Virus record (IMG/VR): IMGVR_UViG_3300022698_000267
Coordinates: 37,575-101,574 of that record
Length of the DNA stretch: 64,000 nucleotides
Direction: 5' to 3' (one strand)
From: a virus
A program made the translations under genes and the position numbers. Of this stretch, positions 24,377 to 28,335 are shown in pieces (the first letter of the stretch is position 1; every line of letters starts with the position of its first letter). The notes beneath the pieces are model-generated. The model ran no database searches. It saw only the letters and a list, made by a program, of their open reading frames with translations, and was not told the DNA's origin.

Positions 24377-25981
24377 ATGAGAAACGAACTAGTAACGCGG
24401 AATTTACCTGAAGTTTTACATTTTGACCACATTCCTGAGAAGGAGATGAAGGACTTTGGAAAGAAAGTTATCTCCCTTATGAATTTGGCCGGTGTGAACA
24501 CAGGTAGAGCAACTCATTACAATACCAAAGAGGAGAAGGAAGAGATGGAAAAGAAAGTCCATCATGAGATCTTCTCAAAGGACCGTGGGGTCTATGCGGC
24601 TGTTCATTGTATGCCAGGGGTAACGGACTATTCCATACAACGAGCCACAATGGCAATGCTTGGAAATACATGGGAACAGCATAACAAGTCTGCCCTGACT
24701 CAGGACGTTGAAACCTTTATATTGAAGAAATTGGTTGCTAATCTTCCTGCAAACAGGATGTTAAATTTGTTTTCCGATATTCGAGAAAATCGAATTAACA
24801 ACTCAAGGGCGAAGAAAAGGATTATCCTTGAGACCCTGTTGAATGCTAAAGGCATTGATTGGTGGGCTGTTAAATACAGAAACAAAATGCGGAAAGCCCT
24901 TGAACATGCCTTGGGAAAGAGAAGAACCGGAATTTTGAAATCAATTCTTTCTCAGGACAGGATGACTGCCGATGGATTCGCAATCGTCAAGGACTTCATT
25001 TTGCAGTATGTAGATTTAGCGGAAAGACATGTTCTGGTTTTGGACAGTCTACGGTTTATTCTGGGATGTCCAATCGGCGAATCGGAATCAAAACTTTTCA
25101 AAGCGTTTAATGACGCCAAGAAAGATCTCAAAAAAGGTAAGGGTCTTCCAATGGAGGTTTTGGAAGGAATCAGATCAACTTACCATAAAGAGGTTCCTCA
25201 GGAAGCTATTCTTGAGCTGACTAAAAAGACCATGACGAATAAGCAGAAACGTCAGGTTCAGAAGAAAGCTCAGAAAGCTGGTGTAGAGGTTAAGTTTGAT
25301 CCAATGAAGTCCAATACCGTCGACCTTTACATTTATGCTTTTGAAATGGGAATGACTGATGCTGTTGCCAAAGCCTTAAAAGTGAAGGCGGAAAAGATTG
25401 CAGCAAGTTTTCCATATTCATTCAAACGACTTGGAATTTTGGTGGACGATTCACATAGCATGTCTGGTCATGACACTCAAAAGTTACGACCAATGGCTAT
25501 CACATTTGCTATCAGAGATGTTCTGAGAAAAACTGCTGATAAATGTGATATTGAATATGCAACCGGAACCAAACTGAATTTCCATAAGCCAAGGGGAGGA
25601 ACAGACCTTGCTACTGGTTTGGTTAACTTGGCCATGAAAGATCCAGACGCCATTTTTATAATCTCCGATGGTTATGAAAATCAGCCAAGTGGAAGGGTTA
25701 ATGAAATCCTTATGGCGTTTGAGCGTGTTGGTTTTAAAAGACCAATTTACCAGATTAACCCTGTGGTTGCATCTGAGACCGGAAAGGGTTTGCGTTCATT
25801 AAGTGAATCGATGATTGTAATACCTGCTTCCAAACCAGAGTCTTTGGTTTCCAATATGTTAATTCCAATGTTGGAAACGGATCCAGTTCGAGCACTTTCC
25901 AACATTGTTAACAGTGCCATTAAGTTGATTGGACAAGGTGATAGAGCTGTGAAAAGATTCTCAGAAGAAGAAATGCTTTAG
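24377..25981 (+). CDS. rsr: Ro60/Rsr-like protein: helical TROVE-like N-terminal 350 aa + C-terminal vWA domain with MIDAS
   Basis: 534 aa (Ro60 size); C-terminal LGILVDDSHSMSG...GGTDLATGL...IFIISDG vWA/MIDAS; AAAGGAGG RBS; GC about 45% versus 30% flanks; 1 kb downstream of tRNA-like RNA array. Confidence 0.55.
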   Translation: MRNELVTRNLPEVLHFDHIPEKEMKDFGKKVISLMNLAGVNTGRATHYNTKEEKEEMEKKVHHEIFSKDRGVYAAVHCMPGVTDYSIQRATMAMLGNTWEQHNKSALTQDVETFILKKLVANLPANRMLNLFSDIRENRINNSRAKKRIILETLLNAKGIDWWAVKYRNKMRKALEHALGKRRTGILKSILSQDRMTADGFAIVKDFILQYVDLAERHVLVLDSLRFILGCPIGESESKLFKAFNDAKKDLKKGKGLPMEVLEGIRSTYHKEVPQEAILELTKKTMTNKQKRQVQKKAQKAGVEVKFDPMKSNTVDLYIYAFEMGMTDAVAKALKVKAEKIAASFPYSFKRLGILVDDSHSMSGHDTQKLRPMAITFAIRDVLRKTADKCDIEYATGTKLNFHKPRGGTDLATGLVNLAMKDPDAIFIISDGYENQPSGRVNEILMAFERVGFKRPIYQINPVVASETGKGLRSLSESMIVIPASKPESLVSNMLIPMLETDPVRALSNIVNSAIKLIGQGDRAVKRFSEEEML

Positions 25982-25996
25982 AAAGGAGGAAATGTA

Positions 25997-27007
25997 ATGA
26001 ACATTCGAGAAATTTTAAAAGGAACGACACCAGGAAAAATTCAGCAAGTCGGGTACATGTCTATCATTCCTGTCCTTCGGGAACCAGAGGATGTGAATGA
26101 AAATGTATGTGATCCAACCAAGATTCTTATCGGTACCAGAAATTATGGTGAAATGGATATGGAAAATCCAACCGATAAAATTGGAATTGTTCCTTTCGGT
26201 ACTGGAGTATTGACCAAACAGAGAGCACAGAATCATGCCACCCCAAAAGCCAAGATTCTGAGATCCAAGGCTTTGGAGAGCATAGACTACGGTGCTTGCA
26301 TTCAGGAAACTCAAGGTGGATTAATTTCTAGGGGAGAACATGAATTTACTATTCTTCCTTGGTCTTTGAGAGAAGCCGGAATTCTAACACGTAACAAGAA
26401 GGAGTATTCAAAACTTTGGGCGCCAATTCGAGAATTCAATAATTCTTTGGGTGTCCGGATAACCGGACACTTGGAAGTTTATTTAGATCATTTTAAGGAC
26501 GACCTGGATAGTTTTGTTGCGCAGTTTGAAGTGGTTCCAAATCAAGTCGGTGCCATTATCTTAATGAATGGCTATGTGATGGGGATCGAACTTACCCCAA
26601 ATTACAGTTACTTCCGGTCCATTTGGAAACCTTTGATTCGAGAATCTTATGGTTCATTAGTGCTTCAGTACCAGAAACAATTTGGAGAGGATGCTCCTAT
26701 TCCAAGAACCCGAGTTGCTTTGCAAACCAATGTGAAAGACATGAAATCATTGCAAAAGGAATTAGTTCGGACTCAAGAAGCTGAAGATGAAAAGGTTAAA
26801 GACGTCATTCGGAAGTTCGTGAATGATAAATTTACCTGTACATCGGAAGAGATTGCAGATGGTTACAAAGTTCAGACTGTAACTAATAAGCAATTTATTG
26901 GACAGGTGGTAACCAAGGATTCAGATGTTCAATATGCTTCTTTGGTAACTTCTGCTAGGGGAATTCGTGAGCAACAGAAGTTCGAAAAGGATGACTTTGT
27001 AATCTAA
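25997..27007 (+). CDS. hypothetical protein (336 aa) co-located with rsr-like gene on GC-richer island
   Basis: GAAAGGAGG RBS; no RtcA/RtcB motifs seen. Confidence 0.55.
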   Translation: MNIREILKGTTPGKIQQVGYMSIIPVLREPEDVNENVCDPTKILIGTRNYGEMDMENPTDKIGIVPFGTGVLTKQRAQNHATPKAKILRSKALESIDYGACIQETQGGLISRGEHEFTILPWSLREAGILTRNKKEYSKLWAPIREFNNSLGVRITGHLEVYLDHFKDDLDSFVAQFEVVPNQVGAIILMNGYVMGIELTPNYSYFRSIWKPLIRESYGSLVLQYQKQFGEDAPIPRTRVALQTNVKDMKSLQKELVRTQEAEDEKVKDVIRKFVNDKFTCTSEEIADGYKVQTVTNKQFIGQVVTKDSDVQYASLVTSARGIREQQKFEKDDFVI

Positions 27008-27030
27008 ATAACAGCGTAATTTAATAGAAT

Positions 27031-27069
27031 AAAACCTCTCATTAATACAATTTTAATGAGAGGTTTTTT
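27031..27069 (+). terminator. intrinsic terminator
   Basis: AAAACCTCTCATTAA-7 nt-TTAATGAGAGGTTTTTT. Confidence 0.65.
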
Positions 27070-27115
27070 GTTAATTCTCCAAATCTAAAACATTGAATGA
27101 AGGGAGGATTTGATT

Positions 27116-27382
27116 ATGAAAAATATTTTGAGTATTAAAGTAATCATAAATACCTTGATAGCCGTTTTACTAGGCGGTCTTTTGGGTTGGGGAATTTGGG
27201 CTACAGATTCTGCTTATTGTGCAAATCAGAATAAAGAGAGGATTCAAGAAAACAAAGAACATATAGAAAGATTACAAGATAGCATCAGTTCCGATCTAAA
27301 AGAAATGAAGAAAACACAAAAGCAAGATACCGATAGAATAATGGATAAGTTAATGCAGATTCAAAGGGAAATGAAAAAGTAA
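27116..27382 (+). CDS. small membrane protein with coiled-coil tail
   Basis: AGGGAGG RBS; one TM. Confidence 0.45.
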   Translation: MKNILSIKVIINTLIAVLLGGLLGWGIWATDSAYCANQNKERIQENKEHIERLQDSISSDLKEMKKTQKQDTDRIMDKLMQIQREMKK

Positions 27383-27388
27383 TTTTAG

Positions 27389-27541
27389 ATGGATCAAGAT
27401 ATTAAAGATTTAGTAGTTTCTCCGGCTGTATCCATTATGATGACTATTGCTATCCCGTTCAGTTTCCTTATGGCGGTTGGCTGGACTTTATGGGAAAAAT
27501 GGAAGAAACTAGAACCTTTTTTTATGAGGTTTGTGAGGTAA
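27389..27541 (+). CDS. putative 50-aa transmembrane mini-protein
   Basis: ORF between neighbours; hydrophobic VVSPAVSIMMTIAIPFSFLMAVGWTLW; ends 5 nt before next ATG. Confidence 0.3.
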   Translation: MDQDIKDLVVSPAVSIMMTIAIPFSFLMAVGWTLWEKWKKLEPFFMRFVR

Positions 27542-27546
27542 ATATT

Positions 27547-28248
27547 ATGTCTAAATTTAAATTTTCGTTGATTCTAATTGTTTTACTTTTCCCTTTGACT
27601 GTTTATTGCACTGAACCAACTTCTCAGAATTATATGACCAGAACAGAAGTCAAGGATTTGATCAAAGACTACAACACAATCACATGGAAGCAGTACGTTG
27701 ATGCAAGATTTAAAGAACTGCAAGATGAAATAAAACTTAGGTCAGACTCTATAACCAAGTCCACTGAATTGGTTAAAGAAGGAATGGACATTCGATTCTA
27801 TGCCGTCAAGGAAGCAACTGATAATGCAAGAGTGGCTATGGAAAAACGTTTGGATGGAATGAATGAATTCAGATCCGCACTTAAAGATCAGGCGGTTCAA
27901 TTTGTAAACAAAGATGAGTATGCTGCAAGGGGAACGCAGTACGGAGCAGATATAGCCCGACTCAGGGATCAGATTTCAGGTACAGTTACACAAACAACAT
28001 TCAAAGCAACTCTGGCACAGAGGGATGAAATTAATAAACGGAACACGGACGACATTAAAAGCCTGTTGTTGTCCAGAGCAGAACTTGAAGGGAAAGCAAC
28101 TCAAACTCAGGCGTTGATCGCTATGGCAATGGGTTTGGTTGGAACATTACTATCCGGAATCAGCATATTTGTTTCAATAGTTAGACGTTCTCGCAATAAT
28201 AATCAGTACAGGGCTACAGACAGTATAGATAAACAGCGATCTGCATAA
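27547..28248 (+). CDS. secreted/membrane coiled-coil protein (signal peptide, C-terminal TM)
   Basis: GTGAGGT RBS; MSKFKFSLILIVLLFPLTVYC; C-terminal hydrophobic anchor. Confidence 0.5.
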   Translation: MSKFKFSLILIVLLFPLTVYCTEPTSQNYMTRTEVKDLIKDYNTITWKQYVDARFKELQDEIKLRSDSITKSTELVKEGMDIRFYAVKEATDNARVAMEKRLDGMNEFRSALKDQAVQFVNKDEYAARGTQYGADIARLRDQISGTVTQTTFKATLAQRDEINKRNTDDIKSLLLSRAELEGKATQTQALIAMAMGLVGTLLSGISIFVSIVRRSRNNNQYRATDSIDKQRSA

Positions 28249-28335
28249 TCGATAGAAGATGTATTAGCAATCCTTCCAAATATAACTCTACTATATTTCA
28301 TTACAATCTACTAAAATTAGTACTAGAGGTGACTT

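Follow-up and report, generated by a model that had tools for sequence, protein, structure and literature searches.

A Ro60-like protein paired with an ARPP-family protein beside permuted tRNA-like RNAs in a viral contig and in bacterial tRNA gene arrays

Ro60 and Y RNAs are conserved from bacteria to humans, and a 64,000-nucleotide (nt) stretch of viral DNA (positions 37,575 to 101,574 of the IMG/VR record IMGVR_UViG_3300022698_000267, here called the window) raises the question of whether two genes downstream of a tRNA-like RNA array encode a further ribonucleoprotein of this kind. An earlier note, made from the sequence alone, had described the first gene as a Ro60/Rsr-like TROVE gene with a C-terminal von Willebrand factor A (vWA) domain, and the second as a possible new partner. 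Both open reading frames (ORFs) are present as it claimed, one of 534 amino acids (aa) at 24377-25981 (+) and one of 336 aa at 25997-27007 (+). We find that the predicted fold of the first protein is closest to Ro60, that the second belongs to the ARPP family, and that homologs of the pair are kept together beside same-strand tRNA genes and RNAs with a covarying stem.

An AlphaFold2 model of the 534-aa protein (predicted local distance difference test score 86, predicted template-modelling score 0.82) is helical at residues 21-343 and alpha/beta at residues 347-520, which bears out the proposed layout of a helical N-terminal part followed by a vWA domain. Comparison of the model with the PDB using Foldseek gives three matches below an E-value of 1e-3, each of which is a Ro60/TROVE structure aligned over its full length with a template-modelling (TM) score of about 0.43; two of them, 9nf8 and 9nfa, contain human Ro60, and the third, 9kop, is a crystal structure of phiLo TROVE. 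The best vWA-only match has an E-value of 0.028, such that the Ro60 entries are about 10^4 times more significant, and the structural Z-scores are 15.5 for Ro60 and 13.1 for vWA-only matches. Ro60 is the top PDB structural match of the predicted model, and the match spans both domains.

The three vWA motifs quoted in the earlier note are all present and together constitute a complete MIDAS (metal ion-dependent adhesion site), comprising D357-x-S359-x-S361, G407/T409, and D431-G-Y-E-N; an alignment of 34 homologs has no variation at D357, S359, S361, D431 or G432, and at least 90% of the sequences retain G407 and T409. The alignment also shows conserved basic motifs in the N-terminal part (R44/T46/Y48, N141-N142-x-R144, and W163-x-x-K166-Y167-R168-x-K170). 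Comparison with a vertebrate Ro60 profile by hhalign aligns the vWA region alone, at a probability of 82% (E 1.1e-5), and sets the MIDAS motifs opposite the DVSASM, GGTD and TDNET of Ro60; the human RO60 query used for this profile is 99% identical to primate RO60, and its hits carry PF05731. A likeness seen by eye between AVKYRxK in this protein and AVTKYKQR in Ro60 was dropped for lack of hhalign backing. Pfam VWA_2 matches the window protein at an E-value of 0.11 only, with weak matches in 11 of the 34 family members, and searches of PHROGs, NCBIfam and PADLOC give no match for either the 534-aa or the 336-aa protein.

The 534-aa protein belongs to a well-defined family whose members are about 530 aa long. 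An exhaustive profile search of 1.84 billion representatives (clusters at 50% identity) returned 723 members at E≤1e-3, 386 of them at E≤1e-30, and because the number is this small the family is compact and its profile does not run into canonical Ro60; it is a family that surveys starting from TROVE annotation have missed. The loci collected for comparison were 75 from species-representative genomes and those on 30 IMG/VR contigs (36-436 kb), one 462-kb uncultured phage, and several metagenome contigs. Among the cellular hosts are Pirellulaceae and other Planctomycetota, Myxococcota, Desulfobacterota, Bacteroidota, and the actinomycetes Embleya and Yinghuangia; the family has a scattered distribution over phyla and is frequent in huge phages. 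The locus on the 462-kb phage was the one related locus found by tblastn, and blastn of both genes against the INPHARED phages gave no match. No capsid or terminase gene was identified in the window, and its contig, of 273,563 bp and from a JGI metagenome, is probably that of a phage, to judge from its relatives.

The 336-aa protein had been said to have no recognisable motif, which is incorrect, as it matches Pfam ARPP-1 (69.1 bits, 5.4e-19) and ARPP-2 (38.3 bits, 1e-09), with a cut-off of 27 for each. An alignment of 36 sequences shows Y50, N57, Q78, H80, C101, Q106, G108, E178, E198, R215 and Y218 to be invariant, and Q103 nearly so. ARPP was defined in NAD+/ADP-ribose conflict systems centred on ADP-ribosylglycohydrolase (ARG), in which a vWA 'chaperone' is frequent (Iyer, Burroughs, Anantharaman and Aravind 2022; PMC9503650), and was described there as a putative enzyme with an absolutely conserved Cys and Gln, for which C101 and Q106 are the counterparts here. 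Other two-gene contexts reported for ARPP involve HIRAN, WYL or a deacetylase, and none includes Ro60 or tRNA (PMC9503650). ARPP is without a solved structural relative, and PDB sequence searches with the single sequence and with the family profile found none; neither the Ro60-like protein nor ARPP shows the signature of an endonuclease or a ligase.

Among de-duplicated loci with enough downstream DNA to be counted, a co-oriented ARPP gene lies no more than 700 nt downstream of the Ro60-like gene at all 67 cellular and all 26 viral loci (93 of 93 overall). The idea that the 336-aa protein is a new partner is therefore upheld in that it is an invariant neighbour of the homologs, although the Pfam family to which it belongs already exists. 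The two proteins are also naturally fused in an 884-aa protein (P0392) with a Ro60-like part at 16-520 and ARPP at 562-831 (PF20208, 8.9e-30); this fusion is a single representative and could be a gene-calling or frameshift artefact. In L003 and in the closest relatives (56-57% identity, on phage-like contigs) a small ORF is inserted between the two genes; it encodes 122-128 aa in the phage-like loci L003 (9634-10008), L111 (6656-7024) and L112 (2554-2940), and that in L003 is of the YopX family.

The tRNA genes that flank the module in the de-duplicated loci, as called by ARAGORN, are strictly oriented, all 608 sharing the strand of the gene. At least 10 flanking tRNA genes are present in 21 loci (19 cellular and 2 viral), and in this the loci resemble bacterial tRNA arrays, with homologs embedded in runs of as many as 39 co-oriented tRNA genes within 11.5 kb (around the module of Minicystis rosea). 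ORF clustering across 110 loci gives no recurrent neighbour besides ARPP, and a third conserved protein was rejected accordingly; RtcB was likewise rejected as a conserved partner, being present in only 2 of the 110 loci. None was found by tblastn in the window, in agreement with the earlier note. HNH endonuclease genes lie near the module in 11 of the clustered loci, a likeness to what is reported for cyanobacterial L-arrays (PMC8421152); two tRNA-array papers link HNH, RtcB and DpsA to arrays, and a term search of them for vWA and Ro60-like genes (ARPP was not among the terms) returned no mention of either.

The window itself contains an array of six RNA units at 22369-23386, on the same strand as the Ro60-like gene and 1-2 kb upstream of it. 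YrlA RNAs are described as having a 5' protein-binding motif and V, T, acceptor stem (AS) and D arms, and as having genes no more than 4 kb from rsr and in its orientation (PMC4201824), a location with which the six units agree. The general architecture, with a long 5'/3' stem, V, T, acceptor stem-loop and D arms, is likewise seen in minimum free energy (MFE) folds, in RNAalifold predictions, and in pair counts on 22 units. Five of the window units share a module with one order (T-arm, 3' acceptor strand, discriminator, CCA, loop, 5' acceptor strand of 7 bp, two bases, and D-arm), which as read from the sequence is that of a circularly permuted tRNA core. All five encode CCA after the discriminator position, and in the MFE folds each is closed by a long stem formed from its 5' and 3' flanks.

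Unit 1 (22369-22522, +; 67.9 bits with our covariance model, R1) has a T-arm, a 7-bp acceptor hairpin whose loop contains G-CCA, a D-arm, and then an intact anticodon arm (GAU, read by eye); its boundaries are taken from the MFE fold, and the 5' strand of its long closing stem bears AAAGGGCU. Unit 2 (22529-22652, +) contains an ordinary tRNA-Leu(CAA) at 22550-22625 (56.6 bits) within a closing stem read by eye as GGAAUAGAG...CUAUUCUAUUCC; because it shares the RRRGCU and UUACAG motifs with the permuted units, it gives the impression of a tRNA set into the frame of a Y-RNA-like molecule. Unit 3 (22656-22829, +; Rfam YrlA 37.3 bits, E 6e-6; R1 82.8 bits; MFE fold) is of YrlA type, with the closing stem UUGAGAAGCU...UUUCUCAA, a T-arm, a 7-bp acceptor hairpin with A-CCA, and a D-arm. 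Unit 4 (22878-23052, +; 77.7 bits, MFE fold) is permuted and tRNA-like, has an anticodon arm with AUG read by eye as the anticodon, and is closed by a duplex of about 22 bp. Units 5 (23074-23240, +; YrlA 27.1 bits; R1 77.9 bits; MFE fold) and 6 (23237-23386, +; YrlA 34.3 bits, E 4.7e-5; R1 82.9 bits) are both of YrlA type, the former having a variable-arm hairpin ahead of its T-arm and the latter the same closing stem as unit 3. Most units lack an anticodon loop by eye, and positions 32 and 33 of unit 3 are both A, unlike a tRNA. At its gathering threshold Rfam reports only tRNA in the window, and no YrlA (RF02553); sub-threshold YrlA matches come from a scan by local E-value, full-length at 22679-22806 and 23266-23380 and partial at 23128-23196, with best scores of 37.3, 34.3 and 27.1 bits (and 28.7 bits in L003) against a gathering threshold of 69. 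The proposed array of tRNA-like RNAs is thus borne out as YrlA-type RNAs that recur on the same strand beside homologs, although they fall below the Rfam YrlA threshold.

Because the R1 model also scores tandem-tRNA junctions, we used a strict scan of the window and the first 78 loci, in which the T-stem had to be perfect, the acceptor hairpin 7 bp long, and a D-arm present. The gene strand has 34 such permuted tRNA-like modules and the opposite strand has one, and most are no more than 500 nt upstream of a homolog and do not overlap annotated tRNAs; viral loci have further permuted modules, and so do the closest relatives. When 22 units, whose hosts range from 33-63% GC, are aligned, they reveal a 5' motif, (C/G)GGGAACUG..GCGUC..UUCAG, and a matching 3' strand. 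The outer closing helix, which played no part in the choice of these units, is 80.5% paired with compensatory changes at 7 of 7 pairs, whereas controls slid by 1-3 columns give 45-60% pairing. A motif search for RGR(A)RCU with a 6-bp helix closing 60-260 nt, within 700 nt upstream, finds the GGGAACU-type motif and helix in 75 of 102 loci compared with 22 of 102 on the opposite strand. The matches include actinobacterial loci that have no tRNA genes, and in many loci the stem element ends 20-120 nt ahead of the estimated start codon. In Pirellulaceae the stem closes a head that is not tRNA-like, and a tRNA of conventional order and variable anticodon is found in a second long stem. The YrlA consensus gave no match in E. 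coli genomes.

We favour, with somewhat better than even confidence, the interpretation that these components form a divergent Ro60/Y-RNA-type ribonucleoprotein that has ARPP as an obligate partner and acts on tRNA. The protein with its solenoid and vWA domain would bind the conserved closing stem of the upstream same-strand tRNA-like RNAs, in the manner of Ro60/Rsr on Y RNAs, and ARPP would be its obligate partner and probably its enzymatic effector, tethered perhaps via the MIDAS face. The tRNA-shaped RNA heads, with their 7-bp acceptor hairpin and encoded CCA, may mimic tRNA and would steer the complex to tRNA-handling factors or to tRNAs; the role could be surveillance, repair or protection of the tRNA pool that comes from the array or the phage, and the module is carried by huge phages and, in bacteria, accompanies tRNA gene arrays. 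What the analysis shows is the predicted Ro60 fold match, the constant pairing of the genes, the single natural fusion, the uniform tRNA strand and the covarying stem; that RNA is bound, that the two proteins touch, and what ARPP chemistry and the biological role are, we infer.

Several results weigh against it. Pfam TROVE (PF05731) matches neither the window protein nor the 34 homologs at E-values up to 1, Ro60 is not retrieved from PDB sequences with either the single sequence or the family profile, and the N-terminal halves align with a probability of only 0.1% by hhalign, the Ro60 profile here being a low-diversity, vertebrate-only one. The TROVE label is therefore valid at the level of the predicted fold only; a Ro60-like architecture is supported as a predicted fold, together with the vWA profile alignment, and membership of TROVE by sequence is unsupported. 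Among the RNAs, the canonical GNCGAAN0-1G, the proposed binding site of Rsr, is not matched, the motif here being GGGAACU(G), or in the window GAGAAGCU or RRGGCU, and the 100% pairing of the T and acceptor helices in the aligned units is circular because both helices were selection criteria. The window RNAs also lie about 1 kb upstream of the gene, with a terminator-like hairpin and two ORFs between.

An alternative explanation is that the pair is a vWA-ARPP conflict module, for defence or counter-defence of the NAD+/ADP-ribose kind, in which the vWA protein is a chaperone or sensor that binds peptides or proteins, and tRNA genes are nearby only through shared mobile elements. This would account for the setting in which ARPP was defined, with its frequent vWA 'chaperone' (PMC9503650), for an N-terminal domain without a sequence link to TROVE, and for the calcineurin-like phosphoesterases encoded nearby in the window; a patchy phyletic spread and abundance in huge phages are likewise as expected of mobile conflict genes. 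However, the three Pfam-annotated loci have no ARG domain and only one faint LMWPc match, in L001, the neighbourhood of ADP-ribosylglycohydrolase and rhodanese-phosphatase typical of ARPP is not seen here, and apart from the HNH endonuclease in 11 loci nothing but ARPP recurs beside the genes. Co-mobility leaves both the 608:0 strand bias of the tRNA genes and the covarying upstream RNA stem, present even where there are no tRNA genes, unexplained, and the top structural matches are to Ro60 and not to chaperone-type vWA proteins; we therefore regard a conflict module as unlikely. It is more improbable by far that the resemblance to Ro60 is coincidental and the function unrelated, as might be so if any protein with helical repeats and a vWA domain would show it. 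The Z-score margin over vWA-only matches is small, the TM-score is 0.43, and an N-terminal profile match is absent, but Ro60 is the sole full-length match, at a far greater significance by Foldseek than any vWA-only protein, and the linkage to YrlA-type RNAs is independent of the fold argument.

It is also conceivable, though we think it quite improbable, that the RNAs are cis elements (leaders or processing sites of tRNA-mRNA polycistrons) or permuted tRNA precursors, with the two proteins as maturation factors. The proximity of the stem element to the start codon in many loci, the complete anticodon arms in units 1 and 4, and the CCA encoded past the discriminator in all five permuted units are consistent with this, as are the Thg1-like enzymes and nucleotidyltransferase encoded in the window and the cleavage by RNase P and acquisition of CCA of M. 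smegmatis YrlA (PMC4201824); but the terminator-like hairpin and two ORFs separate the six units from the gene, most units have no anticodon loop by eye and unit 3 is unfit as a tRNA, and neither protein has an endonuclease or ligase signature. A bolder version of the ribonucleoprotein reading, which we rate as doubtful and a shade below the conflict module in likelihood, is a self-contained machine for the maintenance of mobile tRNA arrays, in which a Ro60-like ring reads the stem on permuted tRNAs and ARPP does RNA-end or ribose chemistry on these or on damaged tRNAs. Such chemistry might excise permuted precursors and re-join them, or strip off an ADP-ribose or phosphate adduct, and some units, for instance 1 and 4 with their anticodon arms and encoded CCA, would mature into working tRNAs. 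If true, a permuted-tRNA pathway would be known for the first time from bacteria or phages, and Y RNAs would be shown to arise from tRNA arrays.

Returning to the divergent ribonucleoprotein that we favour, we note both likeness to and difference from Ro60/Rsr systems, for which we considered rsr-yrlBA-rtcBA of S. Typhimurium, M. smegmatis, mycobacteriophages, and the Thermus phage phiLo. The size of about 530 aa, the helical solenoid with a vWA domain and MIDAS, and the top structural match are shared, as are tRNA-mimic RNAs with V, T, AS and D arms and a long 5'/3' stem that are encoded on the same strand a few kb from the protein gene. In contrast, Pfam TROVE and the N-terminal profile comparison both miss this family, the stem motif is GGGAACU or GAGAAGCU instead of GNCGAAN0-1G, there is an invariant ARPP partner and no linkage to RtcB/RtcA, and the module is embedded in long tRNA arrays with RNAs whose 7-bp acceptor hairpins encode CCA. 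In M. smegmatis, YrlA has a 7-bp acceptor stem and is cut by RNase P before CCA is added (PMC4201824). The ARPP members resemble those of ARG systems (PF20208 and PF22549) in their Pfam match, the invariant C101 and Q106, and the possibility of a vWA neighbour, and differ in that neither an ARG nor a rhodanese-phosphatase was seen as a partner.

Ro60 accompanied by tRNA-like Y RNAs is known already from bacteria and phages, phage-encoded versions included (PMC12135203, PMC7824862), and the survey of YrlA covered only genomes annotated with TROVE proteins (PMC4201824), and therefore had no means of detecting the present family. That a family exists beyond the sequence space of TROVE, its invariant pairing with ARPP, its residence in tRNA arrays and its variant stem motif appear to be undescribed in the literature searched (Burroughs and Aravind 2016, NAR, excluded). 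What the tRNA-like head of a bacterial Y RNA recruits is a standing question; this family has in ARPP a fixed partner and a concrete candidate effector, and the association would give ARPP its first RNA-linked context. YrlA is proposed to have originated from dimeric tRNA transcripts, and a module inside tRNA arrays lies in just the setting proposed for that origin; it is also a candidate protein component for the tRNA clusters of huge phages.

Within the window, the ARPP start codon is 15 nt past the stop of the Ro60-like gene and an AAGGAGG Shine-Dalgarno site precedes each gene, and to judge from the sequence 24377-27007 is a single two-gene operon closed by a terminator-like 15-bp hairpin with T-runs on both strands (27031-27067, strandless; hairpin scan). 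The gene had been placed immediately downstream of the RNA array, and it is downstream, although with a gap of about 1 kb, the array ending near 23386 and being separated from it by a T-tailed hairpin and two small ORFs (23610-24355). This hairpin and its T run (23399-23447, +) are seen by eye at the array end and were not flagged by the automated scan. A promoter-like site, TTGACA and AATAAT with a 17-nt spacing (22300-22328, +), matches 11 of 12 consensus positions, a consensus match only, and a second, weaker one (22822-22850, +) is within a repeated 40-nt sequence; this near-identical repeat of about 40 nt, read by eye at 22312-22352 and 22843-22885 as AAAATATACTAATAATA[C/T]ATTGTAGTT...TTTTGTTCTTT, overlaps the promoter-like hexamers, and the array may therefore have two promoters.

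The GC content of the two genes is 40.4% (40.8% in the 534-aa gene and 39.9% in the 336-aa gene) compared with a window mean of 34.8% (standard deviation 1.8% for same-size windows) and flanks of 33-35%; GC peaks in this 2.6-kb block, which exceeds same-size windows by about 3 standard deviations and is higher than anywhere else in the window, and GC at third codon positions is 0.36-0.40 compared with 0.23-0.27 for adjacent genes. A GC-richer island is thus present, although the 42-45% against about 30% given in the earlier note was too large a difference, and it covers two genes, not three, the ORFs past the hairpin having 31.5% and 38.5%. Because the signal is weaker and shorter than had been claimed, horizontal acquisition is plausible from composition yet unproven. 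The two small ORFs at 27110-27382 and 27490-28248, both of coiled-coil and membrane-associated look by eye and with weak family matches, fall in the range given in the earlier note; they sit past the terminator and are not conserved next to homologs, and are therefore excluded from it.

Other genes of the window are noted here. A calcineurin-like phosphoesterase is encoded just downstream at 28336-29049 (+; Pfam 1.3e-8; phrog_1649 1.4e-26), and the product of 30579-31058 (+) has metallophosphoesterase-like motifs by eye and no Pfam match. There is an MreB/actin-like protein at 20436-21458 (+), a Band_7/SPFH protein at 31511-32497 (+), and a second, ordinary vWA protein at 44946-46121 (+; PF00092, 3.7e-6). 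Two tandem Thg1-like genes of the tRNA-His guanylyltransferase family are at 59639-60448 (-) and 60463-61281 (-) (phrog_4717, 1.3e-81 and 7.2e-52); Thg1-like enzymes are 3'-5' polymerases able to repair tRNA 5' ends. A nucleotidyltransferase at 54222-55205 (+; phrog_388, 7.9e-94) is possibly of the CCA-adding type and may be relevant to the CCA-bearing RNA units.

A Band_7 gene is also near the module in the Stieleria magnilauensis locus (L001, CP036432), where positions 5056-17227 further encode endonuclease V, an additional EF-Tu, an RlaP nucleotidyltransferase and a HIT-DEAD helicase fusion; a number of these neighbours have to do with RNA or translation. The Pirellulaceae loci (L006-L019; for example L008 4537-4705) have a conserved tRNA-Cys(GCA) just upstream, followed by a tRNA-like element in a long stem whose 'anticodon' varies among species (CTT, TTT, TAG, ATG, ATT, CGT and ACG). 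In four viral loci (L080, L084, L101 and L107) ARAGORN makes odd calls, such as Pyl(CTA), Stop(TTA), SeC(TCA), and anticodons of two or four bases, which may be tRNA-like RNAs rather than decoding tRNAs.

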